From: Minisyncoccota bacterium
GTDB lineage: Bacteria > Patescibacteriota > Minisyncoccia > Phycocordibacterales > UBA9973
Assembly: GCA_041666225.1 (NCBI GenBank)
Contig: JBAYHJ010000001.1
Span: 65,881-129,880 of the forward strand
Length of the DNA stretch: 64,000 bases
Reading direction: 5' to 3'
The position numbers and the translations under genes are program-made. How positions within the stretch are numbered: the stretch's first letter is position 1; each line of letters begins with the position of its first letter. This document shows, one piece after another, positions 6,141-42,377 of the stretch. Below the pieces are notes generated by a model. The model was not told the DNA's origin. It ran no database searches and saw only the letters and a list, made by a program, of their open reading frames with translations.

Positions 6141-6446
6141 ATGGGTAAAATAAATATGAATACTGTAAAAAAAGATTTGTTCGATTTGTTTCAAATAGAT
6201 AAAATGTCACCTGAAAAAGGAGAGGAAATGCTTGGACGTCTTTCTAAGTTAGTTTTCCAGGCTGTTTTAGTGAGAGTATTACCAACATTATCAGAAGAAG
6301 AGTTAAGTGAGTATGAAAAAATCGTAGATGGAGATCAAGAAGCAGATGTTATCTTTAAATTTTTATCAGAAAAAATAAAAAATTTAGACGAAATAATTAA
6401 AGAAGAAGCCGAAAATTTAAGAATTGCTTTAGCTGAAAAGGCTTAA
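6141..6446 (+). CDS. Hypothetical small helical protein
   Basis: 101-aa ORF following the giant gene; no recognisable motif. Confidence 0.35.
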   Translation: MGKINMNTVKKDLFDLFQIDKMSPEKGEEMLGRLSKLVFQAVLVRVLPTLSEEELSEYEKIVDGDQEADVIFKFLSEKIKNLDEIIKEEAENLRIALAEKA

Positions 6447-11031: not shown

Positions 11032-11065
11032 ATGATAAGATTGATATAATTAGAGTAGCTATATT

Positions 11066-14000: not shown

Positions 14001-14188
14001 ATGGTTTTACTCCAGTTTCCTGTAAAGCACAAGATAGTGCGTTAAAAAATACTGGGGCAACAGAACAAGTTAGGGAATCGAGCTGTCTTTCCTATTCATA
14101 TTACACTGCCAATAATGGGAAAGATGAATCTACTGATCCATATATCATATATAATTGTAATTGGATACCAAAAAAAATAATTAATTAA
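11066..14188 (+). CDS. Giant secreted Cys-rich protein with C-terminal thrombospondin-type-3-like Ca-binding motif
   Basis: Signal-peptide/TM N-terminus (MVIMFIFVFSFVQIILPTNINA) and many Cys. CNNNLDDDMDGLIDIKDPDC near the C-terminus. Confidence 0.5.
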   Translation: MKKQNLTKIIGMVIMFIFVFSFVQIILPTNINAASQIDWENPNKSGKTYNKYKFKITDVVNSDVAMQVIGCTGVVNKVSTWMQKLATDKLKDIAYDKLLKQAKKACRSGEKVAVNSAGAIINVNDLTSGVDMLFDCGEIMQTEDGKTLRYFTEEKKATEKRDNMEQCFSGIATTLAKNQLTAMTRSAVSWVNTGFSGNPLYVQNITSLTNSIERNVLEEGMNKFKNPNNAYPYGSAFSRSVISGYRSGGIFGSGNNALDNLTSDLSAFISDPVSYSSGSDERTALQRSKDANIAFSNDFSTGGWDGWLAFTQRDSNNPLGFTMQAAQNLADDIAQQKNNTENELIQNDGFLSQKKCTLWQVHDSTTGVIAMKWDPVEHKIKNFTSKTKTNSFDECKEWETITPGSIIKEQMSAYITSPVRQLELADTINESLNAVFSILMSKLQSNGLTGLSSEEYAYTDENMNWTDNSSNGGLGGANLYDNNGAYSSGFDLTRDLGNTYIYDEPTKIGTWNADSEVNLTDKNQSLYSDLAPVAYDEITKPKTSNIYYTVSNSGKTKLVTNGYNGWAIGDRAFWNGSSWQNWKKDQTNPIKKRGVIQIQKDYIVAAKESLQFLPNVMPKLGELDYCIPGPNPSYKINVGQNQSLYTDWVGTLSGVYDQNGIFERDSTQYHIAQPGDKEYDDWKNIFDDNPSVWSWLAKDAGTEKHAPHFYYSHPLMLGNGKDKNDESEAKHTNWMDNYMYMVNNYMFTNFYEVFDKMMNKTYFANITTEYLQNEKYPVNIDLDKNPSYIPMAEEGLALTKDIVSYDEDINSVMDQYRSDIAQANANIGKLETIKRQVSNIIKAAQDRRDANLIEQVNKINSLAIENCKAAQVECDNSTENVSLCLEEYNICIENSVKSGGILTNEQYKAKYKECLDEEDILYYDDSDIMNDQTGERCNNNLDDDMDGLIDIKDPDCRDSVIEAHCETNSLNYETSRIVHGFTPVSCKAQDSALKNTGATEQVRESSCLSYSYYTANNGKDESTDPYIIYNCNWIPKKIIN

Positions 14189-14199
14189 TAAAAAATTGT

Positions 14200-16527
14200 A
14201 TGGAAAATCAACCAAGAAAAAGTAAAGCGTTCATAATTACAATCATAGCTATTGTATTGCTTTTGGTGGCTGGATATTTCCTATACAAGAGTGCAAAAAA
14301 TTCTTCCTCGACAAATATTATTTCAAGAATTTTCTCTCCATTAAGTTCTTCAAATAATTCGAAGGGCATCTCGGCTCAAGCAGGGGAAGACATAAAACAA
14401 GGTGACCAAGTATACACGGCAAGTACAAATACAAATGGTAACCCGATCGTTATGAAAGTTGTAGGAAGTGGAGCACTGAGTTCCGACAAAGTATTGGGAA
14501 TTGCCATTGGTAATATAAATAACGGAGAATTTGGAAGAGTTGAATTTAATACTCCGGGTTCAAATAGTTTCCTAGATTCTTTTTCAAATTTTATAAATGA
14601 TTTATTTACAGGCAACACTGGCAGTGGTGGTACTGGTACAGGAGGAAATGGTACTGGGGGTAATGGAACGGGTGGTGAATATTTACAAGTATGTAGTGAC
14701 ACTTTAGACAATGACTCTGATGGATTGATAGATACTCTCGATCCACAGTGCCACACCGATGGTGATGCTACAAATGCTAGTTCATATGCACCTACACATT
14801 ATTCTGAATTAAATTCACCTGGAGGTGGAGGTACTGGTGAATACACAGTACAGTGTAACGACAAAATAGACAATGATGCCGATGGATTGATTGACGCACT
14901 TGATCCACAGTGCCACGTTGATGGTGATTTAGCAAAAACATATATCCCAACTCATTATTTAGAAGCATCTTTACCAGGAGGTGATTATAAAATGCAGTGT
15001 AATGACACTTTAGACAATGATTCTGACGGATTGATAGATACTCTTGACCCACAGTGCCACACCGATGGTGATGCTACAAATGCTAGTTCATATGCACCTA
15101 CACATTATTCTGAATTAAATTCACCCACAGGTATATGTGCAAACGGAGCGACAAATTACCCAATTTGTACTATTGATATACCAGCGGGCCAACCCGACTT
15201 AACAGCAGGAAGGGTCACTCCTATTAGTGCCACGATCGATACTCCAACAACTCTTTCCTCTATCATTACAAATGAAGGAGATGGAGCAACTGGATATAAT
15301 TTCTCAGGCTTGTTCACAATTATAAAAAATTCTGACACAAATAGCACAACGACAAATGGTGCTGTTTCTAAGTCAATAATTAAAAATTTCATAGCTCGTA
15401 TTTTAAATAAAATATCTTGGATATCTAAAGCTATCGCATCAAATGAAATCGAGTACAGTGTCGTAGTTCCAGCTCTTTCGCCAAAAACAGGAAATGTGGC
15501 AACTGTCTCATATACTTTCAATTCCACGGGGACATACAATATCCGAGCCTGTGCAGATAAAAGATACTCAAGTGACACAGGAATAATTCCAGAATCAAAT
15601 GAGGACAATAATTGTGGACCGTGGGTCACCCTTACTGTCTCTGGATCATTGCCACCTCCTGGAGAAGAGTGTGCAAATGGAGCGACAAATTATCCTTTAT
15701 GTATCCTTGGCGATGATACACTTACACAGTGTAGTGATACCATAGATAATGATGGCGATAGTAAAATAGATGAATTAGACCCAAATTGTCATACAGATGG
15801 TGATTTGACAAAAGCATATCTAAGAGATCATGATTCTGAAGCCACTTCAACAATAACAGAAATAATTGAAGAAAATAAATGCCTACTGATAGAACAAAAT
15901 CCACTTATCTTTACTGATACAGAAAAAGCAAAATTGGCTGAGCTTCTACGTAAATTTTACTTAATATCATCCACCCTAAGGACAGAAGAAGACATCGTGG
16001 CAGTATATAGTGAGATAGACCAATATAAAAATTTTATCGCCCAAACAGACGATCTAATAGGTAGGTGTTATAAAGAAGTTGCTATTGTACAAAACAAGGG
16101 TGGTGGTGGAGGGTGGGTTAGAAATGGTAATCCTTGGTATCGAAAAGAAAAAGGGGGAACAGCCCCATATGGAGGAAATGGAATTTACACAGATTTTAAT
16201 ATTTTAGAGGGCAATGAGGGAAGAGTATATCAAGATGGAAAAGGTCCTGGGTGTAAGGCTGTGTCTGGTTATTTTTATGGTGGAAACCTTCTAAAAGATG
16301 CCATAATACATTATCCTCCAGCAGATGGTGGTGATGTAGTGGTTGGATATGCTGGGGCTAGTTGTGATTCAGTCAATACACAACCTTTCGATTGTTATCA
16401 AGTGAATAGTACTCTTTATGGGAATAACACTAATCTCCTTAAAAAAGAAGCACTGTTAGGTGCTGGGTGTAAGTGGAAAGAAGGAGTTTACCTTGATGGA
16501 GTAGAGAGAATTCTGGAGATTTGGTAG
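14200..16527 (+). CDS. Membrane-anchored surface protein with GTGGNG repeats and four thrombospondin-type-3-like (DxDxDGxxDxxDPxC) repeats
   Basis: N-terminal TM. Four C(S/N)DT(L/I)DNDxDGLIDxLDPQCH modules, two of them about 95% identical at the DNA level (14696-14826 vs 14998-15128). Confidence 0.5.
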   Translation: MENQPRKSKAFIITIIAIVLLLVAGYFLYKSAKNSSSTNIISRIFSPLSSSNNSKGISAQAGEDIKQGDQVYTASTNTNGNPIVMKVVGSGALSSDKVLGIAIGNINNGEFGRVEFNTPGSNSFLDSFSNFINDLFTGNTGSGGTGTGGNGTGGNGTGGEYLQVCSDTLDNDSDGLIDTLDPQCHTDGDATNASSYAPTHYSELNSPGGGGTGEYTVQCNDKIDNDADGLIDALDPQCHVDGDLAKTYIPTHYLEASLPGGDYKMQCNDTLDNDSDGLIDTLDPQCHTDGDATNASSYAPTHYSELNSPTGICANGATNYPICTIDIPAGQPDLTAGRVTPISATIDTPTTLSSIITNEGDGATGYNFSGLFTIIKNSDTNSTTTNGAVSKSIIKNFIARILNKISWISKAIASNEIEYSVVVPALSPKTGNVATVSYTFNSTGTYNIRACADKRYSSDTGIIPESNEDNNCGPWVTLTVSGSLPPPGEECANGATNYPLCILGDDTLTQCSDTIDNDGDSKIDELDPNCHTDGDLTKAYLRDHDSEATSTITEIIEENKCLLIEQNPLIFTDTEKAKLAELLRKFYLISSTLRTEEDIVAVYSEIDQYKNFIAQTDDLIGRCYKEVAIVQNKGGGGGWVRNGNPWYRKEKGGTAPYGGNGIYTDFNILEGNEGRVYQDGKGPGCKAVSGYFYGGNLLKDAIIHYPPADGGDVVVGYAGASCDSVNTQPFDCYQVNSTLYGNNTNLLKKEALLGAGCKWKEGVYLDGVERILEIW

Positions 16528-16529: not shown

Positions 16530-16625
16530 TGAATTAATTAAGAATTAATAATTAAGAATTAAGAAGGGGGAGTAGTAAGGAAAAAAGTAATTAAGAATTA
16601 AAAATTACGAATTAAGAATTGGGAA
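16530..16625. repeat. AT-rich dispersed intergenic repeat cluster (AATTAAGAATTAATAATTAAGAATTAAGAA ... TAATTAAGAATTAAAAATTACGAATTAAGAATTGGG)
   Basis: Built from the AATTAAGAATT / TAATAATTA(C/A)GAATT units that recur at 20571, 21036-21137, 32386, 61641, 62626 and 63301. Confidence 0.7.
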
Positions 16626-16654: not shown

Positions 16655-19570
16655 ATGAAAAGATTTTTACCATACATTTTAATATTGACGATTCTAGTGC
16701 AACTCCTTGCGCCTTTTAGTGTTGGCAGTGGAGTGAAAATTAATAAAGCCGAAGCAGCAGATTGTGTAATTAATGATGTTTTATTTAATCCTCTTACGGC
16801 ACTGCCAGACAAAAAACCAACCAGTGTAACTCTTCATATTTGGACGAGTGGTTGTGCTGGGCAAATAATTAGTGGACTAGGTCTTAATTTAAAAGATGAG
16901 GGGAAAAACTCTGTTTTATTGGTAGTTCCACGACAGGGGATAGTTTTAGATAAATTTTCTTTTCAATTAAAAACAGGGGAATACGGTTGTGGTACTGATA
17001 AAAAATGTGAAAATGTATCTGTTGATTTTACTATTATTGACAACAAGGGAGCAGTCTTGGCTACATATTCCTCAACTCAAGGTGGCTCAAAAAGAGACGA
17101 CGGAGCAGACATTATGTCTTATTTGTGTACAAAAAATGGAACAGAGTCTGATTGTAATAATACTGAGAAGTGGGAGTTTGTTTCTTCTGTTGGAACTGAT
17201 CAATCTGTTGGAGGTGCGACTACAACAGAAAAAGATGTTTGGTATTTTGAAAGTAAAAATGCAACAGGGGTTGTTGTTTTTACTTCAACAGAATATTCAT
17301 CTATTGAAACATGTACATTGGAAAGTGATGATAGGGCAAAAAATTTTAAAGATGAAAAAGTAGGTGATTGTGTATCAAAAAAAGTTGTTGTTGTTCGTGG
17401 TAATGAAGAAACACTTAATGATACAGATTCAAATCCATTGGACTGTGGAATAAGAAATTTTAAAGGCTGTGTGGCAATGGTTCCATATTATTTATTATTT
17501 GTACCAACTTCAGCGGTTTTCACAATAGCAGGGAAAATGCTTGATTTTACTTTGGGGTATTCTATTCAGGATAAATCATATCGTTCAACATTTGTTGTTG
17601 AAGGATGGGGAATTGTTCGAGACTTTTGTAATATGTTCTTTATTTTCATTTTGCTTTATATTGCTTTTGGAACTATTTTAAATCTTCACAGTGTTAAAAC
17701 AAAAGAAATGATTATAAATGTTGTAATCATTGGGCTTTTAATAAACTTTAGTTTATTTGCCACACAAGTAATTGTTGACGCTTCAAATATATTGACGCGG
17801 GTGTTTTATAATTCAGAGACAATCAAAATAGTTGAAAAGAATGCAGATGGAACAATCAAAGAACCTGTTCCTGGTAGTTATATAAAACTTTCTGAAGCTA
17901 TTGTCTCAAAAGTAAATCCCCAAGAACTAGTTTTGAGGGCTGGTACTGTTGGTTACATACAAGATAAAGGGGGTTTGTCTACACCCCCAGAAGCAGGAAA
18001 AATTGGTCTTGGTACGCTTATTTTAGTTATATTACTTGCAACAGCGGTAAACATTGTTGGAATAATAGTATTCGTATCTGTCTCTTTGATTTTCGTGACA
18101 AGAGTTATTGGGCTTTGGCTTGCTATGATATTTTCTCCTTTTGTATTTTTCAGCTACACCGTTCCATCATTGCAAGACATGGAAATGGTTGGTTGGAAAA
18201 AATGGTGGCCAGAAACTTTAAAACTTGCTTTTCTGGCTCCTGTTTTTATGTTTTTTATGTATCTAATTGTTAAGTTTTTGAATCTAAAACTTGATATTAT
18301 AAATACCACGGGGAAATCTGGGCCGGATTTCGTTGTTTCAATATTATTACCATTTGCTTTTATAATGATACTTCTCTGGAAAGCAAAAGATATTGCCAAA
18401 GACATGTCTGGTAAAATGGGCCAAACAATAACAAACGGAATTGCTGCTGCAGGAGGAATTGCACTGGGTGGAGCTGCATTGGGAACAGCAGTGTTGGGAA
18501 GAAGGGTAATTGGACAGACAATGGCAAAAGCATCAAGGGGAGATACTGCTACGCAGAAATACCAAGCTGCATTAGGAGATCCAGCAGCTATGGCTAAATT
18601 AACTAATTGGCAGAAACTAAAAGGAGGTGTTGGTTCAGCAGTAGGAATGGGTAAGGTCTATGGTACTGATAAGGGTAATATTGACCCACTAACAGGTAAA
18701 CCTATTGGGGTTGAGGGTGGTATTGGTGGGGCTCTAAATAAAAAACAGAAAGCTGTTGGGGATGTAGATAGTGCTCGACACAAAGAAGATGAATTAAAGA
18801 AAGCAAGTGGATTAGAAGGTGTTGATAACAGTAAACTATCTGGTAATGATATTAACACGATGGAAGGTAAGTTTAAAGAAACAGAACGATCTAATGCAGA
18901 AGCTGCCGCAAGAAAGGGAGTTGACGCTAAAGGAAAAGCAATATCAATAGAAGATGATAAAGGAATTTCATATCGAGGTGAAGAAGAATTCAAAAAAGCA
19001 AAGATGGAAAAGATGATACAAGACAGAAAAGACCTTGGAAATGATGATGATTTTGTAAAAGAAAAGGTAAGAGATAAAAAGGGTAATGTTATTAGAGAAG
19101 AAAGAACAGATCAATTAAAACCTGAAATATTAGACGGCATCAAGAATGAATTAAATATTAAATTAAGTGCTGCTGTTAAAATAGCTGCTGACAATAAACT
19201 TGTTGAGGACTTTGGTAAAATGAGAGAAAACGCCTCAAAACACGTCAACCCAATTAACAGAGTAATTGCTGGATCAAATAAATATAGTTATGACGCTAGA
19301 AAATTATCTGATATCAAATCAGATAAAAGAGAGGGGTTCTTTGCAAAAGTCCCAGTCGCTCTTATAGCGGGTATCGCAACAGGTGTTAGAGCTGGTATAA
19401 AAAATATTGGGCTAAGCAATGGAGGTGTAAAAGTTGAAGGTAATTTTATGAAAGATTTAGGAAATACAATTAGTGATTCATTAAAGAGTATGAAGGTTAA
19501 TGTAGACCTAAGCCATGTTGGAGAAACAAAAAGTAGTGCCGATGCACATGCAGGAGGAGCACATCATTAA
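16655..19570 (+). CDS. Large polytopic membrane protein, possible VirB6/TrbL-like T4SS channel component with long extracytoplasmic N-domain and G/K-rich C-tail
   Basis: Signal peptide MKRFLPYILILTILVQLLAPFSV, a ~290-aa Cys-containing domain, then six or more hydrophobic helices between aa ~290 and 620. The ATG at 16655 was chosen over the TTG at 16619. Confidence 0.35.
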   Translation: MKRFLPYILILTILVQLLAPFSVGSGVKINKAEAADCVINDVLFNPLTALPDKKPTSVTLHIWTSGCAGQIISGLGLNLKDEGKNSVLLVVPRQGIVLDKFSFQLKTGEYGCGTDKKCENVSVDFTIIDNKGAVLATYSSTQGGSKRDDGADIMSYLCTKNGTESDCNNTEKWEFVSSVGTDQSVGGATTTEKDVWYFESKNATGVVVFTSTEYSSIETCTLESDDRAKNFKDEKVGDCVSKKVVVVRGNEETLNDTDSNPLDCGIRNFKGCVAMVPYYLLFVPTSAVFTIAGKMLDFTLGYSIQDKSYRSTFVVEGWGIVRDFCNMFFIFILLYIAFGTILNLHSVKTKEMIINVVIIGLLINFSLFATQVIVDASNILTRVFYNSETIKIVEKNADGTIKEPVPGSYIKLSEAIVSKVNPQELVLRAGTVGYIQDKGGLSTPPEAGKIGLGTLILVILLATAVNIVGIIVFVSVSLIFVTRVIGLWLAMIFSPFVFFSYTVPSLQDMEMVGWKKWWPETLKLAFLAPVFMFFMYLIVKFLNLKLDIINTTGKSGPDFVVSILLPFAFIMILLWKAKDIAKDMSGKMGQTITNGIAAAGGIALGGAALGTAVLGRRVIGQTMAKASRGDTATQKYQAALGDPAAMAKLTNWQKLKGGVGSAVGMGKVYGTDKGNIDPLTGKPIGVEGGIGGALNKKQKAVGDVDSARHKEDELKKASGLEGVDNSKLSGNDINTMEGKFKETERSNAEAAARKGVDAKGKAISIEDDKGISYRGEEEFKKAKMEKMIQDRKDLGNDDDFVKEKVRDKKGNVIREERTDQLKPEILDGIKNELNIKLSAAVKIAADNKLVEDFGKMRENASKHVNPINRVIAGSNKYSYDARKLSDIKSDKREGFFAKVPVALIAGIATGVRAGIKNIGLSNGGVKVEGNFMKDLGNTISDSLKSMKVNVDLSHVGETKSSADAHAGGAHH

Positions 19571-19581
19571 AAAAACAAATT

Positions 19582-20184
19582 ATGGATCAAACACAATTAC
19601 AACAAAATATCGCTAAATACTATGCAAAACTTCCTAGTGATTTACAGCAATCTTTTTCGAGTATGGCCTGGATGGAAGATTTAAAAAATATTAGTACTAA
19701 ATATTCTCTTACCAATGAACAAACTGAGACCCTAGCAACAGAAACAACACTAGTTTTACTTGGTATTGTTCATCTGGAAGATTATGTTTTGACTCTTAAA
19801 AATGATTTAAAATTAAATGACGAAACTTTTAATAAAATATTAGATGATTTAGACGCAAATATTCTAAAAGACACCAAAGATGATCTTGTTAAAACATTTG
19901 AGTTAAATATTGAATTATTGGAAAAAGAAAATAGTAATAAAGAAAAAGAAATAATTAAAACAAATGAAGATGAAGTACCATTGCCACCATACGCAGAAGT
20001 AATTAAGAATGACGAATTACCAATTACAAAAGTTGAAATACCTAAGGGAATAGAAGTAAAACCAGAAATTAGTATTGCTCCGAAAAATATTTTTGAAGAA
20101 AAAATGAAAGGAGCAACAGTAAGCACTCAAACCGTTTCTGATTATTCTGTCACAAAAAAAGATCCATATAGAGAGGAGTTCTAA
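19582..20184 (+). CDS. Hypothetical protein
   Basis: 200-aa ORF, tightly packed in the operon. Confidence 0.4.
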   Translation: MDQTQLQQNIAKYYAKLPSDLQQSFSSMAWMEDLKNISTKYSLTNEQTETLATETTLVLLGIVHLEDYVLTLKNDLKLNDETFNKILDDLDANILKDTKDDLVKTFELNIELLEKENSNKEKEIIKTNEDEVPLPPYAEVIKNDELPITKVEIPKGIEVKPEISIAPKNIFEEKMKGATVSTQTVSDYSVTKKDPYREEF

Positions 20185-20215
20185 AAAATTAAGACTTAAC
20201 AATTATGAATTAGGA

Positions 20216-20566
20216 ATGAAAGAAGATAATATAATTAAAGAAAAAAGTTATAATTTTAGTCTTAAAATTATAAAAACATACCAAGAATTAACAATAGATA
20301 AAAAAGAGTTTATTCTTTCAAAACAACTAATTCGTTCAGGAACATCTATCGGGGCTAACGTAGAAGAATCAATCGGTGCTCAATCAAAAAATGATTTTAT
20401 ATCAAAAATAAGTATTTCTTACAAAGAGGCAAGGGAAACACTTTATTGGTTACATCTTTTAACAGATAGTGGTTTTCTAAAAAAGGAACAATCTGATACA
20501 CTTATATTTGATTGTGAAGAATTATTAAAAATACTCGGTTCTATTTTAAGAACATCTAAGTCGTGA
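20216..20566 (+). CDS. Four-helix-bundle protein (23S rRNA intervening-sequence protein family)
   Basis: QLIRSGTSIGANVEE signature and the ETLYWL motif. Confidence 0.7.
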   Translation: MKEDNIIKEKSYNFSLKIIKTYQELTIDKKEFILSKQLIRSGTSIGANVEESIGAQSKNDFISKISISYKEARETLYWLHLLTDSGFLKKEQSDTLIFDCEELLKILGSILRTSKS

Positions 20567-20570
20567 GTGT

Positions 20571-20610
20571 ATAATTATTAATTCTTAATTATTAATTCTT
20601 AATTAATCCA
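20571..20610. repeat. AT-rich dispersed repeat, reverse orientation (ATAATTATTAATTCTTAATTATTAATTCTTAATTAATCC)
   Basis: Reverse complement of the AATTAAGAATTAATAATTAAGAATT unit. Confidence 0.7.
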
Positions 20611-20612
20611 AG

Positions 20613-21020
20613 GTGCAATTCAAAGTCCCACAATTTATCGACGTTGAAGACAAACTTTTTGGTCCTTTCACCTTTCGCCAATTCGCATACCTCGCAGGCG
20701 GAGCAGGAGCAATTTTTGTCTTATATAAATTACTTCCTTTATGGATTAGTATTTTTCTAATTATCCCAATGGCAGTTCTAACTGGTCTTTTGGTTTTTTA
20801 TAAAATAAACGAAAAACCTTTTATTTTTTACCTTCAAGCTGGATTTGAATATTTAACTTCAAGTAAGCTATATATTTGGAAACAGCGCTTGGCAAAACCT
20901 GGAAACAAAGAGACAGAAACAGAAACACCTCTTCCTATGGTATCAATAGTTCCAATGACAACAGAAAATAAATTAAAAGATTTGTCATGGAGTTTAGACG
21001 TTAAGGACAAAAACAAGTAG
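20613..21020 (+). CDS. PrgI-family (VirB3-like) T4SS membrane protein; GTG start
   Basis: N-terminal KVPQFIDVEDKLFGPFTFRQFAYLAGGAGAIFVLY matches the PrgI pattern (KVP...EK...T.RQ...G.GAA), and two TM helices follow. Confidence 0.55.
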   Translation: MQFKVPQFIDVEDKLFGPFTFRQFAYLAGGAGAIFVLYKLLPLWISIFLIIPMAVLTGLLVFYKINEKPFIFYLQAGFEYLTSSKLYIWKQRLAKPGNKETETETPLPMVSIVPMTTENKLKDLSWSLDVKDKNK

Positions 21021-21034
21021 TAACTTGTTTTTGT
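21008..21034 (+). terminator. Hairpin overlapping stop codon (aaaaACAAGTagtaACTTGTtttt)
   Basis: 6-bp stem flanked by A-run and T-run; could act in either direction. Confidence 0.4.
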
Positions 21035-21035
21035 T

Positions 21036-21140
21036 AATTAATAATTAGGAATTAAGAATTAAGAATTGGGCTAAAAAGTATGATATAATATTAGTAGTTA
21101 TGAATTCTTAATTCCTAATTATTAATTCTTAATTATTTAA
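21036..21140. repeat. Inverted pair of the AT-rich repeat (AATAATTAGGAATTAAGAATT ... AATTCTTAATTCCTAATTATT) flanking a TGATATAAT -10-like core
   Basis: Arms of about 22 bp at 21044-21066 and 21105-21127. The 36-nt centre contains gTATGATATAAT. Confidence 0.65.
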
Positions 21141-21142
21141 AT

Positions 21143-21793
21143 ATGATTAGTGCAAAAAGTTCTCAAGAGTTTGTTCCAATTAAAGAAGTTCGAAACGGCA
21201 TCATTGTCCTTAAAGATGGTGGTCTTCGTGCAATTCTTCTTGCTTCTTCTTTAAATCTTTCTTTAAAATCGTCCGATGAACAAGCTGCTATTATAAATGA
21301 ATTTCAAAATTTTCTAAATGGATTGGATTTCCCCACACAAATATCTATGCAATCACGCCGACTAGATATCCGCCCATATCTTTTAACCTTAGAAGCAAGA
21401 ATAAAAGAACAAGTTGAGCCACTTTTAAAAATACAAACGAAAGAATACATAGACTTTATTCGGTCTTTCACTGATGAAGTAAACATCATGACAAAAACTT
21501 TTTTTATCGTCGTTCCTTATAGTCCCACAATCATAAAATCTAGTGACAGTATGATGAATAGTTTACTTGGAGGAAGTTCTGAAAAAAAACAAATTGAAAA
21601 TACAAAAAAAGCCATGGATTTGGCTTCATTTGAAGAAAAGAGAACTCAACTTGATCAAAGGGTTGGAGTCATCATTGGAGGCTTGGGTAGAATTGGGATC
21701 AGAACAGAACAACTTAAAACAGATCAGGTTGTTGAACTTTTTTATAAAACATTTAACCCAGGAGATATTAGTCAGGGAATTAAATTACAATAA
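21143..21793 (+). CDS. VirB4 N-terminal (CagE/TrbE/VirB-type) domain protein; same frame as the downstream ATPase ORF, separated by one TAA
   Basis: VPIKEVRNGIIVLKDGGLRAILLASSLNLSLKSSDEQAAIINEFQNFLNGLDFPTQISMQSRRLD resembles the VirB4 N-terminal family pattern (DG.l.av.e..G...l.sd.e.e.....f...l..l......Q....R). Stop TAA at 21791-21793, then F-I, then ATG 21800 in the same frame. Confidence 0.45.
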   Translation: MISAKSSQEFVPIKEVRNGIIVLKDGGLRAILLASSLNLSLKSSDEQAAIINEFQNFLNGLDFPTQISMQSRRLDIRPYLLTLEARIKEQVEPLLKIQTKEYIDFIRSFTDEVNIMTKTFFIVVPYSPTIIKSSDSMMNSLLGGSSEKKQIENTKKAMDLASFEEKRTQLDQRVGVIIGGLGRIGIRTEQLKTDQVVELFYKTFNPGDISQGIKLQ

Positions 21794-21799
21794 TTTATT

Positions 21800-23638
21800 A
21801 TGGGAATATTTTCATCTATATTTAAAAAGAAAGGGGACATAAACACTCAAAACAAAAGTGGTGTTATGCCAATGCTTCCAAGTGAAGTATATAAAGCAGC
21901 GACACTTGAGCTTCAAGACATTATCGCTCCATCTGCTCTCCAAATAACACCAAAATCGCTAAACTTGGGAGACAAAATAGCCAGAACTTTCTTTGTCATA
22001 TCATATCCAAGATACCTAAGTGACAACTGGTTTTCTCCAATTATAAACTTGGATAAAGTTTTTGATGTTTCTATTTTTATTCATCCTATTGAGACTGCTG
22101 AAATACTTAGATCCTTCCAGAAAAAAGTTGCTGAAGTTCAAAGTCAGATTTCTATTCGTGAATCAAAAGGTCTTGTTCGTGATCCAATGCTAGATACTGC
22201 ATATAAAGATCTTGAAGACCTTCGCGACAACCTAATGCAAGCTCAAGAAAAAATGTTTGATGTTGGGCTTTATATTACAATCTACGCTGAAAATGATAAT
22301 GATTTATTTAAAATTGAAAATGAAATAAAATCTCTTCTTGAATCAAAGCTCATTTATTTAAAACCTGCTCTTTTCCAACAAAATGAAGGTTTTAAGAGTG
22401 TTATTCCTCTTGGAACTGACATTTTAGGTATTCATCAAAAGCTCAATACTGAACCACTTTCAAGCATCTTTCCTTTCGTTTCGTTTGATCTAACTGAAGA
22501 CAAAGGAATACTTTATGGGGTTAACCGCCACAATTCAAGTTTAATTCTTTTTGATAGATTTTCTCTTCCAAACTACAATTCAATAACTTTTGCTACCGCT
22601 GGAGCAGGAAAATCTTACGCCACAAAGCTGGAAATTATTCGTACTCTTATGTTTGATACTGAAGTTATCGTCATAGACCCAGAAAGGGAATATGAATATT
22701 TAGCAGAAGCCGTCGGTGGTAGATACTTCAATATTGCTCTTTCGTCAGATCACCACATCAACCCTTTTGATTTACCAATACCGACAGGAGACGAAACAGG
22801 AGCCGATGTCTTGCGAGCAAATACCATAAATCTAGTAGGCTTGTTTCGTATTATGCTTGGAGGACTTACCCCAGAAGAAGATTCCATCATAGATACGGCA
22901 ATCACAGAAACATATGCGCTTAAAGATATTACTTCTGATTCAGATTTTCGAAACATCGAACCACCTATGTTGTCCGACTTCGAGGTTGTTCTCTCTGGGA
23001 TGGAGGGAAGTGAATCTTTGATGCAACGTTTGATTAAATACACCCATGGTTCTTGGGCATCTTTCCTCAATCAACCATCAAACGTCGATATCAATCGTAA
23101 GTTTATTGTTTTTTCCGTTCGAGACATGGAAGACGAATTGAAACCTGTTGCTATGTATATTGTCACTCACTATATTTGGAATGCTATTCGTAAAAATATT
23201 AAAAAGAGATTGTTGGTAGTAGACGAGGCTTGGTGGATGATGAAGTCAGAAGACACTGCTTCTTTCCTTTACTCTATTGCTAAGCGTGGAAGAAAATACT
23301 ATTTGGGGCTTGCAACCATTACTCAAGATGTAGGGGATTTTATGAAAAGCCCTTATGGTATTCCTATTGTTACAAACTCTTCTATTCAACTTCTTCTTAA
23401 ACAATCCCCGGCAACCATAGATGTACTCCAAAAAACTTTCAATCTGACAGATGAAGAAAAGTATCTACTCTTGGAGGCAAATGTGGGAGAGGGTATATTC
23501 TTTGCTGGATTGAAACACGTTGCCATCAAAACTATCGCATCTTACACCGAGGACCAGATCATTACTTCTGACCCTTCACAAATTCTTGCTATCAAAAAAG
23601 CCAAAAGTGATTTACTTGCGTCAAACAGTAGTAATTAA
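21800..23638 (+). CDS. virB4: VirB4/TrbE/TrsE-family T4SS ATPase (C-terminal part or full protein)
   Basis: Walker A in FATAGAGKSYATKLE, Walker B/DEAW in LLVVDEAWWMM, and a VirB4-like N-region (FFVISYPRYLSDNWF). Confidence 0.75.
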   Translation: MGIFSSIFKKKGDINTQNKSGVMPMLPSEVYKAATLELQDIIAPSALQITPKSLNLGDKIARTFFVISYPRYLSDNWFSPIINLDKVFDVSIFIHPIETAEILRSFQKKVAEVQSQISIRESKGLVRDPMLDTAYKDLEDLRDNLMQAQEKMFDVGLYITIYAENDNDLFKIENEIKSLLESKLIYLKPALFQQNEGFKSVIPLGTDILGIHQKLNTEPLSSIFPFVSFDLTEDKGILYGVNRHNSSLILFDRFSLPNYNSITFATAGAGKSYATKLEIIRTLMFDTEVIVIDPEREYEYLAEAVGGRYFNIALSSDHHINPFDLPIPTGDETGADVLRANTINLVGLFRIMLGGLTPEEDSIIDTAITETYALKDITSDSDFRNIEPPMLSDFEVVLSGMEGSESLMQRLIKYTHGSWASFLNQPSNVDINRKFIVFSVRDMEDELKPVAMYIVTHYIWNAIRKNIKKRLLVVDEAWWMMKSEDTASFLYSIAKRGRKYYLGLATITQDVGDFMKSPYGIPIVTNSSIQLLLKQSPATIDVLQKTFNLTDEEKYLLLEANVGEGIFFAGLKHVAIKTIASYTEDQIITSDPSQILAIKKAKSDLLASNSSN

Positions 23639-23639
23639 T

Positions 23640-23670
23640 CCCCAGATAGTGCTTTAAGCCCTATCTGGGG
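23640..23670 (+). terminator. GC-clamped hairpin (CCCCAGATAG-11nt-CTATCTGGGG) after virB4
   Basis: Perfect 10-bp stem with no strong T-run. It has the same 31-nt length and CCCCA/TGGGG ends as the REP-like palindrome. Confidence 0.4.
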
Positions 23671-23706
23671 AAGCTAAAGTTGTTTGATTTATAAGGTTAT
23701 TGTATA

Positions 23707-24711
23707 ATGTATAAAGTGAAAATTATAAAAATAAAATTTTTTCTAGTTTGGGTTTTTATTTTTGGAATAATTTGTATACCATCTTTTTCTTTTGCTGAAA
23801 TGCAAATAGAAGTGCAGAGTGATGAAGTTAATATAGAGATGAGTCCCAGAAACCCACAACCATATGACGATGTAACTATTACTCTTAGTAGTTACGCAAC
23901 TGATCTAAATAAGGCAATAATCGTTTGGAAAACTGGCTCAAGTACAGTTCTTTCGGGAATTGGTAAAACTAGTTATTCTTTTAAAGCGTCAGGGCCAAAT
24001 ACAACTAACTTTTTTGATATAAGTATTACTCCAGTTGGATCCATGAGTAATATAAATAAAAAAATTTCTATAACCCCCTCAGAAATTGAGATCATGTGGG
24101 AATCAGTAAATGGATACACACCTCCTTTTTATAGAGGAAAGTCACTTCCTTCAAGTGGTTCTTTTATCAAAGCTGTCGCAATCCCAAATACGAATACAAT
24201 AAAATCAGGGAGTGGTAGTATAACTTATAATTGGAAAAACAATGACAGTGCAGAAGTTGATTCTTCTGGATACAATAAAAATTCTTACATATTTAAAAAT
24301 AATATGTTTGATAATAAAAATGAAATAAGTGTAGTAGCTTCTTCTGTTGATGGAAAATATTCAGCTGAAAATTCAATACAAATACCTACATATAAACCAA
24401 AAATAATTTTTTACAAAAAGTCTCCAACTGAAGGCATTCTTTACAATAATGCACTCGACAAAGAAGCCTATATGTCTGAAGAAGAAATGACAATACTTGC
24501 TGAACCATACTTTTTGACTCTTCAAAACAATGAAAATGATTTAACTTACTCTTGGCAAATAAATGGAGAAAAAATAGTAACTCCTTCAAAGAAAAACGAA
24601 CTCACTGTCAGGCCAACTTCACGAGGTGGCTATGCTACTATTAATTTGATTATTGAAAATGTAAATGAATTATTCCAAGAAGTTAGTAATCAATTAAAAT
24701 TAAATTTATAA
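23707..24711 (+). CDS. Secreted hypothetical protein
   Basis: Signal peptide (FFLVWVFIFGIICIPSFSFA). The -10 TGTATAAT overlaps the annotated ATG, so the true start may be the downstream GTG at 23716. Confidence 0.45.
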   Translation: MYKVKIIKIKFFLVWVFIFGIICIPSFSFAEMQIEVQSDEVNIEMSPRNPQPYDDVTITLSSYATDLNKAIIVWKTGSSTVLSGIGKTSYSFKASGPNTTNFFDISITPVGSMSNINKKISITPSEIEIMWESVNGYTPPFYRGKSLPSSGSFIKAVAIPNTNTIKSGSGSITYNWKNNDSAEVDSSGYNKNSYIFKNNMFDNKNEISVVASSVDGKYSAENSIQIPTYKPKIIFYKKSPTEGILYNNALDKEAYMSEEEMTILAEPYFLTLQNNENDLTYSWQINGEKIVTPSKKNELTVRPTSRGGYATINLIIENVNELFQEVSNQLKLNL

Positions 24712-24712
24712 T

Positions 24713-26008
24713 ATGAAAAAAATATTTGTATCCATTTTTATAATAACTACAATTTTAACTCCATTGTTTTTTGTTAGTAAAATACAAAAAGTTGAAGCTG
24801 TAACCCCAAAAATTGATAGTATAAATAAGGTTACAGAAGTTAAACATGCAAATAATACTTGGGAATGGAATCTTAATATCCAAACAACTGATATCCCAGA
24901 CGGAACAGATGTTTGGGTTAATTTATATAAAGGAAGAACCCCTGGAGAAAATTTAATTAAAGCAATTGTAGCTCCTGATATAAAAGATAACATTTCAAGA
25001 TTTGGCACAGATTCTATTTTGGAAGATAATACTGATTACACGATTCAGGCTTCAGTATTATCACTGCCACGAACTTCTATTGTTTTCCGTGGAAAAACAA
25101 TAGAAGGGGATAAGGGTGATGTAGTTTATATAAACCCAGAAGAAAATAATGTTGATACTGGAATATACACCCTTCTTGCACCAATAGGAGATCTAAAAGT
25201 TGCTCCAGGTAATGTGGGTGATTATTTTAATATAATATTTAAAATAGCTATCGGCCTCTGTGGAGCTCTCGCTGTTATAATGATTGTTCTTGGTGGAATA
25301 CAATACATGGGTAATGAATCTATTTTTGGGCAAACAGAAGCAAAAAGTAAAATAACTGCCGCAATTCTTGGTCTATTGATTGCTCTTGGTGCTTATGCTC
25401 TTCTTAATACTATCAACCCAGACCTACTAGGTGGGGGAGGAGTACATATTGATCAGGTGAGTGCAGAAATACAAGAAGAACCAATATTATCAGATATAAA
25501 CACTCCAATTCCATCTGGATCATCAAACTCTTTCCCTTTTTGTAAGGGGGGTGTCAGAAAAACCGCAGTAAAAACAACTGCTGGGTATATGACATTTTGT
25601 TCAGCTTATTCATCTAAACTCCAAGAAATGATTTCTAGTGCATATCATGCTACTCCTAGTATTGCACTTGGAGGAGGAGCATTCAGGGATCCAGCAACAC
25701 AAATTGCCGCGAGAAGAAGAAATTGTGCCGATGTTTACAATACACCCTCAGAAAAATGTGTTCCCCCAACAGCAAAACCAGGAACATCTGCACATGAAAA
25801 TGGGCTTGCAGTTGATTTTACTTGTGATGGAACAACAATTAATTGGCAAACTAATACAAAAGCACCTGACTACCAACCTAAATATGCCCGTGTTCAAAAT
25901 ACAAAAAAATGTTTTGATTGGCTAACAGCTAATGCTAGTAAGTATGGGTTTAAAAATTATACAAGAGAAAACTGGCATTGGTCTACTGGGGATTTAGCTG
26001 GTCATTAA
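24713..26008 (+). CDS. Fusion protein: signal peptide + VirB2/TrbC-pilin-like double-TM segment + C-terminal VanY/M15 (LAS) peptidoglycan peptidase domain
   Basis: Double-TM FKIAIGLCGALAVIMIVLGGIQYMG...ITAAILGLLIALGAYALLNTINP. SAHENGLAVD matches SxHxxGxAxD exactly, and ENWHW gives the ExxH motif. Confidence 0.6.
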   Translation: MKKIFVSIFIITTILTPLFFVSKIQKVEAVTPKIDSINKVTEVKHANNTWEWNLNIQTTDIPDGTDVWVNLYKGRTPGENLIKAIVAPDIKDNISRFGTDSILEDNTDYTIQASVLSLPRTSIVFRGKTIEGDKGDVVYINPEENNVDTGIYTLLAPIGDLKVAPGNVGDYFNIIFKIAIGLCGALAVIMIVLGGIQYMGNESIFGQTEAKSKITAAILGLLIALGAYALLNTINPDLLGGGGVHIDQVSAEIQEEPILSDINTPIPSGSSNSFPFCKGGVRKTAVKTTAGYMTFCSAYSSKLQEMISSAYHATPSIALGGGAFRDPATQIAARRRNCADVYNTPSEKCVPPTAKPGTSAHENGLAVDFTCDGTTINWQTNTKAPDYQPKYARVQNTKKCFDWLTANASKYGFKNYTRENWHWSTGDLAGH

Positions 26009-26015
26009 TTAATTT

Positions 26016-27512
26016 ATGTCTAAAAAAATAATCATTTTTATAATAGCATTTATAACCACAGGAATAATAATTCTTGGGGTTTATTTCTGGATAAATAAAG
26101 ACAAAACCACAAATTTAGATGGAACTACTCCTTGGTATCAAGAGTTCAATCCTTTTGGAACTGGGAGTAATGCCACAAATAATACAGACAATAATAATGT
26201 GGGGGGAGACCAAAATGAAGTTCCAGATGGGGCAAATAATCAAACATCCAAATTCTATCAGATTACAGACTTTGCAATCGCTGGTGCTACCTTTTTAGAA
26301 GATACAAGACCAATTGTGGTTATACCGGGCCAAGAAGTTACCCAAAAGCCAGAACCAATTAAAACAATTATTAGTGCTGAAACAAAAGAAGGAAGAAAAG
26401 AAATCCAAATATTTTTGAATGAAACTCTTTCTTTAAAACCAGCCCTTGTGGTAGATGGAAATTTTGGCAAAAAAGTTACAAAGGCGATAAAAGATTTTCA
26501 AAAATTAAATAATTTACCAATCACAGGTATTGTTGATGCTGCAACTGCTCCATTTTTCATAAAAACAACTACAATTACGGACGTGGCAGAAAAAAACTTA
26601 TTTGAAACTGCTCCATCTGTCAGATATGTAGAGAGAATGAACGGACATATTTATAAAATGTTCCTAGATACAAAAATAAAAGAAAAAATTTCAAACTCAA
26701 CTATTCCTAGTATTTATGAAGCACTTTTTGATAAAACAGCAAAGACTGTGGTTTATAGATATTTATCAGAAGACAAAATAATAAGTAGTTTTATGGCAAC
26801 CTTAGGAGCAGTAAAGGGGGAGTTCCTTCCACAAAATATTTCTGGAATAACTACCTCGCCAGATAAAACTAAATTTTTCTATCTAACAGAAAACAGCAAT
26901 GGTGTCACGGGAACAGTGGGAGTTTTTGGGGGAGCAACGAGAGACAACGTATTTAGTTCTCCTTTTACAGAGTGGATACCACAATGGACAAAAAATCAAA
27001 ATATTTACCTAACAACAAAAGCTTCTTACAGTGTTTCTGGAAGTGTCTTTCTTTTAAACACAACAAACAAAACTATTTCAAAAATATTTGGTGGTGAACT
27101 GGGGCTCACTACATTAGTAAGTCCAAATGGGTCAAATGTTTTGTATAGTACATCCACAGAAACAGGCCCTAAGCTCGGTGTTTTTAATGCTACAAATCAC
27201 TCTACAAAAGATTTAAATACTTATGGACTACCTGAAAAATGTGTTTGGAGTAATGATGGTATTAGTGTTTACTGTGCTATTCCAAGTGTTATCACTGGCA
27301 ACCAATACCCTGATATTTGGTATCAAGGGCTAATTTCTTTTGATGATTATTTTGTAAAGATAGATACCAACAATGGTGAAAAAGTAACCATGGCAAATTC
27401 GGTCAATGAAAAACCATTAGATGGAACTTATCTATTTTTAGACAATAAAGAAGACAATCTTTTCTTTACAAACAAAAAAGATTCAACATTTTGGGGGTTG
27501 GACCTAAGATAA
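26016..27512 (+). CDS. Membrane-anchored protein with PG_binding_1 peptidoglycan-binding domain and beta-rich C-terminal domain
   Basis: N-terminal TM; VVDGNFGKKVTKAIKDFQKLNNLPITGIVDAATAPFF matches DGxFGxxTxxAVKxFQ...GL..DGIVG..T. Confidence 0.55.
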   Translation: MSKKIIIFIIAFITTGIIILGVYFWINKDKTTNLDGTTPWYQEFNPFGTGSNATNNTDNNNVGGDQNEVPDGANNQTSKFYQITDFAIAGATFLEDTRPIVVIPGQEVTQKPEPIKTIISAETKEGRKEIQIFLNETLSLKPALVVDGNFGKKVTKAIKDFQKLNNLPITGIVDAATAPFFIKTTTITDVAEKNLFETAPSVRYVERMNGHIYKMFLDTKIKEKISNSTIPSIYEALFDKTAKTVVYRYLSEDKIISSFMATLGAVKGEFLPQNISGITTSPDKTKFFYLTENSNGVTGTVGVFGGATRDNVFSSPFTEWIPQWTKNQNIYLTTKASYSVSGSVFLLNTTNKTISKIFGGELGLTTLVSPNGSNVLYSTSTETGPKLGVFNATNHSTKDLNTYGLPEKCVWSNDGISVYCAIPSVITGNQYPDIWYQGLISFDDYFVKIDTNNGEKVTMANSVNEKPLDGTYLFLDNKEDNLFFTNKKDSTFWGLDLR

Positions 27513-27545
27513 TTACCAATTAATAATTACCGATTAGTAATGAAT

Positions 27546-27580
27546 ACAAAAATGCACAAGCGAAGCTTGTGCATTTTTAA
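27546..27580. terminator. Bidirectional rho-independent terminator (aaaaaTGCACAAGCgaaGCTTGTGCAttttt) between convergent genes
   Basis: 9-bp stem, GAA loop, A-run and T-run; flanked by inverted AATTACCAATTAATAATTACC repeat variants. Confidence 0.7.
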
Positions 27581-27601
27581 TTAGTAATTTTTAATTGGTA
27601 A

Positions 27602-28069
27602 TTAGTCATTATTGACGTATTTAATCACAACTCTACGAGTTGGACCATACCCCTCTGATTCTGTTTTGATGTTTTTTGCTCCTTCTAAAAACATATGAAT
27701 AATACGTCTTTCATAAGAGGGCATCGGATCAATTTCAATATTACTTTTGAAATAACGAGCACGTTCTGCCATCATGTGGGCAATATTTTTTAAATTTTCA
27801 AAACGCTTTTTTTGATAACCATTTACATCAATAAAAATACTAGGACCTCTCTCTTCTTCTTTTATCGTTCCTTTCTCAACTATTCTTTGAACAATGTGAT
27901 TTAAAGAACGCAAGGTTTCACCCTCTCTTCCAATAATAAAATTAGAATCTGGTGTTTCTATAGAACACCAAAGTATTCCATTTTCATCCACAAATTCACA
28001 TTTGGTGAGTGTGCATGCTGTGTGTTTAAATATTTGCTCTATTGCTTCTTTTATTTTATCTTTATTCAT
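27602..28069 (-). CDS. jag: RNA-binding protein KhpB/Jag (KH + R3H domains)
   Basis: IGREGETLRSL is KH GxxG-like. MPSYERRIIHMFL is R3H-like. The gene sits downstream of yidC. Confidence 0.7.
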   Translation of the reverse strand: MNKDKIKEAIEQIFKHTACTLTKCEFVDENGILWCSIETPDSNFIIGREGETLRSLNHIVQRIVEKGTIKEEERGPSIFIDVNGYQKKRFENLKNIAHMMAERARYFKSNIEIDPMPSYERRIIHMFLEGAKNIKTESEGYGPTRRVVIKYVNND

Positions 28070-32388: not shown

Positions 32389-32431
32389 TAATAATTAAGA
32401 ATTAATAATTACGAATTAATAATTATAATTC
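32386..32431. repeat. AT-rich dispersed repeat copy (TAATAATAATTAAGAATTAATAATTACGAATTAATAATTA)
   Basis: Same units as 16530 and 62626. Confidence 0.65.
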
Positions 32432-41029: not shown

Positions 41030-41068
41030 ATTGGTTTATTATAGCTTATGGGGATACTAAAAACACAC

Positions 41069-41097
41069 TTGACATTTGTTGCCTAATATGATACTAT
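41069..41097 (+). promoter_or_regulatory. Promoter-like TTGACA-17-TACTAT; near-duplicate of the promoter at 42277
   Basis: ttgacatttgttgcctaatatgatactat versus ttgacattttgctgttaatatgctatactat. Confidence 0.4.
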
Positions 41098-42077: not shown

Positions 42078-42085
42078 GTTCTTTT

Positions 42086-42305: not shown

Positions 42306-42377
42306 ATATAGGTAAGTTTTAAATTAAAAATTAAACCGCAGTCACGGTTTAAATGAAAATTTTTATAAGTAAATTAT

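Follow-up and report, generated by a model that had tools for sequence, protein, structure and literature searches.

We analysed a 64,000-nucleotide stretch of DNA from a Minisyncoccota bacterium (contig JBAYHJ010000001.1, positions 65,881 to 129,880), called the window below. Nine consecutive open reading frames (ORFs) on its plus strand, at 16655-27512, had been proposed from the sequence alone to form a compact type IV secretion system (T4SS)-like module. All nine ORFs were found where this original prediction had placed them, but the spacing differs from its claim of 2-40 nt: the gaps between genes measure 11, 31, 46, 122, 6, 68, 1 and 7 nt (range 1-122). The window has a G+C content of about 32%, and the T4SS locus is similar to the rest. 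Window proteins are identical to NCBI entries MFA6514718-20, which come from a Candidatus Paceibacterota metagenome-assembled genome, and VirB4 is annotated there merely as a 'DUF87 domain-containing protein'. From the evidence set out below we conclude that the locus is, with high confidence, the Paceibacteria version of the chromosomal T4SS of the ultrasmall, host-dependent Patescibacteria (the candidate phyla radiation, CPR).

The gene at 21800-23638 (plus strand) encodes a 612-aa VirB4 ATPase of the type known as MPF-FATA (MPF, mating-pair formation). It scores 369.3 bits against the NCBIfam model NF045971 for CD1110-type VirB4 (cutoff 325), matches the Pfam families PF19044 (TraG P-loop, 1.9e-24) and PF12846 (AAA_10, 35.1 bits), and matches 4AG5, the solved VirB4 C-terminal domain (8e-40), and TrwK (5e-6) in the PDB. 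The Walker A and DEAW motifs attributed to it were both located, as GAGKS at aa 268 (22601-22615) and VVDEAW at aa 473 (23216-23233). Its 120 best matches are all proteins of Paceibacterota/Nomurabacteria metagenome-assembled genomes (MAGs), 89-95% identical, and identity across Paceibacteria ranges from 76 to 95%. The identity of VirB4 is unambiguous.

Directly upstream, a 216-aa ORF (21143-21793, plus strand) had been read as the N-terminal domain of VirB4 encoded as its own gene. This reading holds: the ORF matches the TrsD/TraD family NF041427 (2.6e-6) and covers positions 2-130 of the CD1110 VirB4 profile, in which the 612-aa ORF begins at 182. The trsD stop is a TAA, with six bases (two codons) between it and the virB4 ATG in the same frame, and trsD and virB4 together amount to one full-length VirB4. 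As a comparison set we used 80 related Paceibacteria/Nomurabacteria loci from species-representative genomes, whose VirB4 is 76-90% identical to that of the window. In these loci all 79 plus-strand matches have TrsD as an ORF of its own immediately before virB4, the 76 uncut ORFs being 210-239 aa long, which excludes a sequencing error. Nor is the split due to UGA recoding or a frameshift, because the stop is TAA and every one of those matches keeps the split.

Two further components can be recognized upstream of these genes. A protein with two transmembrane (TM) segments (20613-21020, plus strand) is PrgI/VirB3-like, as predicted, with 39.3 bits against PF12666 (gathering score 27). Profile matches are therefore significant for both of the ORFs, 21800-23638 and 20613-21020, on which the original prediction had staked its case. 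Among the profiles it had proposed, PF12666, PF12846 and PF02557 match, whereas PF03135 and PF04610 give no direct match in window proteins.

The identification of the large polytopic protein at 16655-19570 (plus strand) as VirB6/TrbL-like was the weakest of the component claims, and it is supported by distant homologues and a structural model rather than by Pfam directly. The ORF opens at a TTG at 16619, from which it would be 983 aa long; the ATG at 16655 is the likelier start. A signal peptide or anchor is followed by a variable extracellular domain of about 250 aa, then by a core of about seven TM segments (aa ~280-630 of the 983-aa ORF), and finally by a tail of about 340 aa that is rich in Lys, Gly and Ala and in which roughly one third of the residues are charged. 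Neither the 983-aa protein nor its 45 orthologues have a direct TrbL/VirB6 match in Pfam or NCBIfam, and the orthologue profile finds nothing in the PDB below E=0.01. The homologues of the TM core (aa 270-650), found at E ~1e-11 to 1e-40, carry PF04610 TrbL and/or PF19590 and bear the name 'type IV secretion system protein'. The AlphaFold model of the core has a predicted local distance difference test score (pLDDT) of 82, and its three top Foldseek matches are TrwI/VirB6 of plasmid R388. Compared with R388 TrwI/VirB6 and Legionella DotA, sequence identity is about 10%, and the window protein adds the extracellular N-domain and the charged tail. The locus thus has both VirB3/PrgI and VirB6 homologues near virB4, and we regard this protein as an extended VirB6-like channel subunit.

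To place the locus in its genomic setting, every window protein was compared with the 80 loci by tblastn, and presence was counted over the 41 loci that have full 10-kb flanks. Gene order and strand in these 41 are the same as in the window. The VirB6-like gene, prgI (about 50% identity) and trsD are present in all 41; the genes for the 334-aa and 498-aa proteins described below in 40 each, the pilin gene in 38, and those for the 1040-aa, 294-aa and 775-aa proteins in 36, 30 and 8. Among the chromosomal neighbours, yidC is found in 38, dnaA and dnaN in 37 each, and ksgA in 23. The conservation of VirB4 exceeds that of DnaA in 53 of 53 loci (medians 79.7% versus 65.2%), and that of each other neighbour too, although the loci had been selected by VirB4 similarity. 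Conservation drops from the cytoplasmic to the extracellular components: TrsD is at 60%, PrgI at 50%, and the 334-, 498- and 1040-aa proteins are at 28-37%.

Immediately 3' of the locus, on the minus strand, lie jag, yidC, yidD, rnpA and rpmH, followed by dnaA and dnaN, towards which the T4SS genes are transcribed. A terminator-like hairpin, a perfect 15-bp palindrome at 27547-27579, separates the last T4SS gene from the convergent jag. Other housekeeping genes in the window are uvrD, ksgA, a PBP1A-type penicillin-binding protein gene, tyrS/trpS, ruvABC, polA, tsaE, rsgA, maf and fpg. The locus had been described as an accessory block, and this description does not survive: it adjoins rpmH-rnpA-yidD-yidC-jag and dnaA-dnaN, its G+C content is that of the window, it has no integrase, and its genes are syntenic in the related loci rather than dispersed. 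We conclude that it is a core, vertically inherited chromosomal system and not an accessory island.

This conclusion bears on the idea that the locus is a chromosomally integrated conjugative element, the remnant of an integrative and conjugative element (ICE) or plasmid that moves DNA by means of a relaxase and a coupling protein encoded outside the window. The idea has some points in its favour: VirB4 has its best profile match in CD1110, a family from the conjugative transposon CTn2 of Clostridioides, type IV coupling protein (T4CP) homologues occur elsewhere in the genome of a relative, RAAC4_OD1_1 (PMC12102498, Table S3), and a gene with an IS200-like Y1 transposase fold lies 8 kb upstream. 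However, Pfam scans of 51 annotated window ORFs found no relaxase, T4CP or integrase domain, and no flanking repeats of the kind that mark a mobile element were found in the 64 kb. Three ORFs, non-nested and all of at least 100 aa, lie outside that scan: the one at 49512-50153 has no Pfam match at E<=0.001, and the other two are at 60472-60945 and 60920-61423. The claim that the locus has neither a VirD4 coupling protein nor a relaxase is borne out by these scans, in which oriT was not searched for; for VirD4 it holds within the window and, to judge by RAAC4_OD1_1, not beyond it. Also against a conjugative element are the G+C content, which is the same as that of the surroundings, the place beside dnaA, fixed in 37-41 of the 41 loci, and the fact that VirB4 evolves more slowly than DnaA. 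In a survey of Patescibacteria genomes, moreover, relaxases were found in 103 of 3,035, and in just 15 cases near virB4 (PMC12102498). Because the locus lacks a coupling protein and a relaxase, conjugation is unlikely, and the conjugative-element explanation is largely refuted; we give it very little credence.

The transposase-fold gene itself (PF01797, 2e-8; 8516-9184) overlaps the start of ksgA by 11 nt and is absent from 80 of 80 related loci.

How well such a system had already been described was left uncertain by the original prediction, and the answer is that it corresponds to the published Patescibacteria T4SS, whose components have been catalogued in RAAC4_OD1_1. In Southlakia epibionticum, transposon sequencing (Tn-seq) showed the genes of a T4SS that has no relaxase or coupling protein, pilins among them, to be essential (Wang et al., 2023, Cell, PMC10633639). 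The survey of 3,035 genomes found VirB4 in 2,417, as a clade nested in MPF-FATA, with a repertoire near virB4 of TrsD, VirB3/PrgI, VirB6 and VirB2-like pilins and almost no relaxases; in Paceibacteria, the neighbourhood comprises dnaA, dnaN, rnpA, ksgA and rpmH (Quinonero-Coronel et al., 2025, Microb Genom, PMC12102498). The window agrees in each of these respects: the closest relatives of its MPF-FATA VirB4 are all patescibacterial, TrsD stands next to virB4, VirB6, VirB3/PrgI and a VirB2-like pilin are present with no relaxase or T4CP nearby, and all five neighbourhood genes are there. RAAC4_OD1_1, in which genes 531 (VirB6), 533 (VirB3), 534 (TrsD), 535 (VirB4) and 537 (VirB2) are catalogued (PMC12102498, Table S3), is locus L008 of our set; its VirB4 is 88% identical to that of the window, and the catalogued genes are at matching relative positions.

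The closest counterparts outside Patescibacteria are the conjugative MPF-FATA systems of Gram-positive bacteria (CD1110 of CTn2, Trs of pGO1/pSK41, Prg of pCF10 and Con of ICEBs1). Like them, the window has a VirB4 above the CD1110-family cutoff, a PrgI/VirB3 and an extended VirB6, and, as in pGO1, TrsD is a separate small gene before virB4. Unlike them, it has no relaxase, no adjacent T4CP and no VirB8-like NTF2 protein that we could find; it has a VirB2-like pilin, which the Gram-positive conjugation systems lack; and it is chromosomal, beside dnaA in the presumed origin region, and vertically inherited. The T4SS of Mycoplasma ICEs (the pilin-like Mbov_0395 and the VirB4 Mbov_0397) is similar in belonging to a wall-less or monoderm lineage and in having a two-TM pilin-like protein beside an MPF-FATA VirB4. 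The window VirB4 matches the corresponding model NF045975 at 7.7e-76, with 255 bits far below the cutoff of 590; the match of the window's pilin-like segment to the Mbov_0395 family is weak (1.8e-3, 17.9 bits against a cutoff of 40), and the Mycoplasma system resides on a mobile ICE, unlike the window locus. The Patescibacteria T4SS can be described as a monoderm machine that derives from MPF-FATA and is no longer tied to conjugation.

The pilin of this system is itself unusual. The gene at 24713-26008 (plus strand) encodes a 431-aa protein with a Pfam match to VanY and a weak one to T4SS_pilin, which had been described as a pilin-like double-TM segment fused to an M15/VanY peptidoglycan hydrolase. 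The architecture was confirmed. After a signal peptide or anchor comes an N-domain (aa 23-150), then a two-TM hairpin of the VirB2 kind (aa ~150-240, DNA 25154-25438), which a Gly linker joins to a VanY/M15 peptidase (aa 300-423). The peptidase scores 33.1 bits against PF02557 (gathering score 25) and has kept the motifs SAH, AVD and ENWHW, which we take to be the zinc and catalytic motifs of M15; a profile of the VanY domain alone found nothing in the PDB below E=0.01. At 431 aa, with roughly 130 aa of N-domain ahead of the hairpin and a VanY domain of roughly 190 aa behind it, the protein differs from the small pilins of the VirB2/TrbC kind, which are about 70-120 aa when mature and consist mostly of the two-TM hairpin.

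The assignment as a VirB2-like pilin near virB4 comes from the relatives of the protein. Among 69 syntenic orthologues of 140-774 aa, 57 match PF18895 (T4SS_pilin) at E<=1e-3, the best at 9e-10, and six match TrbC; the RAAC4_OD1_1 orthologue is catalogued as VirB2. What the 69 have in common is a core of about 90 aa, with a YxLLAPLP motif, two TM helices and a TINPxLL motif. Both flanks vary. The part ahead of the hairpin can be TIG, Big_1 or filamin-like, and the C-terminal domain is NlpC/P60 in 11, VanY in nine (plus three with M15_4), YkuD in five, SLT in two to four, Amidase_5 in two and 3D in one. The enzyme type differs even between genomes whose VirB4 is 88-90% identical. In the window and the ten relatives compared here (nine with VirB4 at 88-90% and locus L013 at 83%), the C-domain is VanY in five, SLT in one, YkuD in one, a divergent lytic-transglycosylase-like domain ('ES...GLFQLS') in two, and an unnamed domain ('NNPGNIGN') in two.

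A profile hidden Markov model (HMM) of the hairpin, used locally, finds one ORF in the window, one in each of 68 loci, and two in each of four; the intergenic stretches of the window yielded no small two-TM ORF standing on its own. By contrast, Saccharimonadia and Microgenomatia have arrays of 2-11 small pilin genes. Relatives of the hairpin number 14,225 at E<=1e-3 among 1.84 billion cluster representatives, and among the best 150 of them, 144 continue for at least 100 aa past the hairpin (median 181 aa) and 130 have at least 80 aa ahead of it. Three relatives, P0409, P0495 and P0490, are each predicted as a single chain of 612-1382 aa with 4-11 copies of the hairpin module, which may reflect either pilin arrays that have fused or errors of gene calling.

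In Paceibacteria, then, the single pilin module sits inside a protein of 300-770 aa whose C-terminal peptidoglycan-active domain varies among near relatives. The fusion consists of a variable Ig-like (immunoglobulin-like) N-domain, a conserved hairpin, and an interchangeable enzyme that can be VanY/M15, NlpC/P60, SLT, YkuD, Amidase_5, 3D or one of at least two unnamed types. The main text of PMC12102498 mentions neither VanY nor a pilin fusion; the published accounts give the gene simply as VirB2 and say nothing of domain swapping. The fusion and its domain swapping are a modest addition to them. The fusion bears out the expectation of a T4SS-like module with unusual component fusions, and the separate gene for the VirB4 N-terminal domain is an unusual split.

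The remaining conserved partners are mostly extracellular. The gene at 23707-24711 (plus strand) encodes a 334-aa protein that had been listed as secreted; its domains are indeed extracellular, but it is membrane anchored and has three Ig-like or fibronectin type III (FN3)-like beta-sandwich domains, and it is a candidate wall-spanning stalk or scaffold. It was also considered as a VirB8 and rejected, the three sandwiches being unlike the NTF2 fold; its family profile finds nothing in the PDB below E=0.01. The last gene (26016-27512, plus strand) encodes a membrane-anchored 498-aa protein in which the predicted peptidoglycan-binding domain was found as PG_binding_1 (aa 125-177, 3.2e-12). This domain is optional, being present in just 8 of 46 orthologues; a C-terminal domain of about 300 aa, kept in all orthologues, is probably a propeller, given weak TolB/PD40 hints; the family profile finds nothing in the PDB below E=0.01. 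The product of 19582-20184 (plus strand; 200 aa) has no TM segment, is probably cytoplasmic, and occurs in 34 of the 80 loci, with conservation limited to its N-terminal 110 aa or so; it has no Pfam match, and its profile finds nothing in the PDB below E=0.01. A relationship between it and the DUF5663 protein at 6141-6446 was rejected after comparison.

Upstream of the nine genes, in the same orientation, lie three genes for surface proteins that belong to the setting to varying degrees. The 294-aa protein (10147-11031, plus strand), a conserved upstream neighbour, is anchored by one N-terminal TM segment; its family alignment contains a calcium-site-like motif, DTDGDGIxDWEE, and its profile finds nothing in the PDB below E=0.01. 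The 294-aa and 200-aa profiles were both considered for a VirB8-like NTF2 fold, and neither has a PDB relative. The 1040-aa protein (11066-14188, plus strand), with a signal peptide or anchor, belongs to an unannotated family kept in order and strand; no Pfam family was found in 41 orthologues and no PDB relative at E<0.01, and the protein is a candidate adhesin or outer component. The 775-aa protein (14200-16527, plus strand), which varies in its presence among the related loci, has Cys-bracketed 'DNDxDGxID..DP.C' repeats and a marginal CARDB match. The last two had been called giant thrombospondin-type-3-repeat proteins, which overstates the case: PF02412 (TSP_3) does not match the proteins of 11066-16527 even at E<=5, and there are three strict C.D..DND.DG.ID..DP.CH.DGD repeats, plus a fourth variant read by eye, in the 775-aa protein and a single DDDMDGLID motif in the 1040-aa protein. 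What the 294-, 1040- and 775-aa proteins (10147-16527) have in common is short Asp-rich calcium-site-like motifs, with no Pfam repeat family matched.

That a majority of the conserved partners lie outside the cell (the pilin-wall enzyme, the large surface proteins, and the Ig-like and propeller proteins) raises the question of whether the locus encodes an adhesion and wall-remodelling organelle that translocates no substrate, with VirB4 merely assembling the pilin-enzyme and the surface proteins. VirB4 does drive pilus assembly in other T4SSs. Set against this, a channel subunit of the VirB6 fold with a long cytoplasmic tail is strictly conserved, and type IV pili are already encoded for adhesion (PilB, 39329-41029). 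We consider an organelle of this kind improbable, and a translocating T4SS remains our preferred reading.

The PilB region encodes another envelope machine, at a distance of 12 kb from the T4SS. The type IV pilus ATPase PilB/T2SSE (2e-114, minus strand) is followed by a 305-aa protein of unknown nature and by a surface protein of 1203 aa that matches DUF11 marginally, the whole spanning 39329-45989. Near the start of the window, a 998-aa protein (3132-6128) carries, close to its N-terminus, a winged helix of the FtsK-gamma type (aa 103-160, 3e-13) with no FtsK motor domain, two TM segments in mid-protein and long low-complexity stretches. Its neighbour, a 742-aa protein (864-3092), matches no family, and neither has a relative among the 80 related loci.

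One of the nine genes does not belong to the machine. The 116-aa product of 20216-20566 (plus strand) had been listed as a four-helix-bundle protein. The fold was confirmed, as a member of the 23S rRNA intervening sequence (IVS) family PF05635 (23S_rRNA_IVP, 6.4e-27), but its place as a T4SS component was not, because only 4 of the 80 loci (1 of the 41 with full flanks) have the gene, at three different intergenic sites. It lies between inverted arrays of the heptamer AATTA[AC]G at 20187-20217 and 20574-20604. Similar cassettes, each an ORF between long AT-rich inverted repeats, are found in the T4SS operons of four other genomes (L039:3728-4260, L056:8337-8812, L049:1314-1712 and L046:2955-3440). 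The sites are before prgI in the window, L039 and L056, between prgI and trsD in L049, and between trsD and virB4 in L046, which has a different repeat. The gene is thus an inserted cassette. It resembles a mobile cassette of the IVS kind that targets an mRNA operon instead of rRNA, and its stems could be RNase III sites. A diversity-generating retroelement (DGR) was considered for this Avd-like gene and is unlikely, as no reverse transcriptase domain was found in the scanned window ORFs.

Arrays of three or four of these heptamers recur at about ten sites in the window, nearly all intergenic: 16536-16620, 20187-20218, 20572-20604, 21036-21134, 27511-27603, 32386-32424, 61647-61678, 62292-62323, 62631-62655 and 63323-63355. 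Five of them are in the T4SS locus or at its edges. A search with an 18-mer of the array (<=3 mismatches) gave 38 matches against 1.5 expected, and triple heptamers gave 23 against 0.04. The repeat is lineage specific, since only four of the 80 loci (L039, L056, L004 and L049) have at least three array matches; an operator, a REP-like element (repetitive extragenic palindrome) and the footprint of IVS cassettes are the candidates for what it represents. Between prgI and trsD, the inverted arrays at 21036-21134 (plus strand) form a long AT-rich hairpin of about 28 bp (RNA fold -31.1 kcal/mol, z -5.9), whose 35-nt loop holds TGATATAAT, an extended -10-like element. This may be an 'empty' cassette site or a regulated internal promoter for trsD-virB4.

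The components suggest how the machine might work. TrsD and VirB4 would dock on VirB3 and VirB6 to form a membrane translocon, and VirB4 would pull the hairpin of the pilin out of the membrane so that a short, pilus-like conduit could be assembled. In VirB2-type pili, such as those of the F- and T-pilus structures, both termini of the subunit point outward. For this reason the N- and C-terminal domains of the fused pilin would face outward and decorate the exterior of the filament, unless they are cleaved. The tethered enzyme would open the peptidoglycan, the job of PrgK, TraG, CwlT and TcpG in Gram-positive systems, where this modular hydrolase has its counterparts. The Ig-like and propeller-like anchored proteins would scaffold the passage through the wall, and the large surface proteins would touch the host cell.

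Several lines of evidence bear on what such a conduit is for. Reviews call the role of the Patescibacteria T4SS unknown and speculate that it delivers effectors, takes up host material or forms a pilus conduit (PMC12857230, PMC11665869), and a 2026 preprint describes tubular structures at the parasite-host interface that are possibly T4SS pili. The conservation of VirB4 above DnaA may be taken as indirect support for a role in epibiotic growth. The machine most likely works at the interface between epibiont and host, where it would exchange macromolecules, and not in DNA conjugation; that it does so as a host-contact conduit we regard as moderately likely. The expectation of a secretion, uptake or contact apparatus rather than a conjugative element is consistent with the literature, which also favours a non-conjugative role.

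The direction of transport, export of protein or uptake of host material, we can call at no better than an even chance, and nothing in the sequence decides it. The uptake of nucleic acids or nutrients, by a machine that like Helicobacter ComB or archaeal Ced would import host DNA, RNA or building blocks, fits a set that has VirB4 but neither T4CP nor relaxase, and Patescibacteria lack nucleotide synthesis. In S. epibionticum, moreover, ComEC is dispensable and the T4SS essential, and a 2026 preprint ties VirB4 to feeding on host RNA. The weak local match to CedB also points this way, but it amounts to 29.4 bits against a cutoff of 700 over some 70 residues of the ATPase core, and no component of the CedB or ComB type scores above its family threshold. 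The sequence, again, is silent on direction, and to our knowledge there is no DNA-binding or channel component specific to uptake systems. An uptake machine is a possibility that we rate as less likely than not; it concerns direction only and is compatible with the identity of the locus as a Patescibacteria T4SS.

The fused enzyme invites a further question. It might sit on the pilus-like conduit, or be shed from it, and cut the wall of the host cell, which we think rather unlikely; the ordinary alternative is a VirB1-type enzyme that acts on the cell's own wall. If host walls were indeed the target, enzyme swapping would track host peptidoglycan chemistry, as in a polymorphic-toxin system.

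A number of observations weigh against this account as a whole. The window protein scores 18 bits against T4SS_pilin, under the gathering score of 26.6, and with about 150 aa ahead of the hairpin and about 190 aa behind it, the protein may be unable to pack into a VirB2-type filament unless processed, which leaves a pilus uncertain. The search for a VirB8-like component found none, the 334-aa candidate being Ig-like. The placement of VirB4 in the Patescibacteria clade rests on best matches and on orthology to a catalogued locus. The GC skew keeps one sign throughout positions 1-64000, with no switch at dnaA, so that proximity to the origin, from which the locus has been proposed in print to profit, is indicated here by marker genes alone. 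Finally, essentiality was shown for Saccharimonadia only (PMC10633639). Even so, the explanation is, taken whole, strongly favoured, held almost as firmly as the identity of the locus itself.

In summary, the system is already described (PMC10633639, PMC12102498), and a cultivated Saccharibacterium needs it for growth on its host. The window re-finds it and adds a clean Paceibacteria example, with evidence for VirB6 at the level of fold, an Ig-like anchored partner where a VirB8 might be expected, and a lone pilin fused to a rapidly swapped wall enzyme. This fusion could bear on how epibionts breach the envelope of a neighbour.

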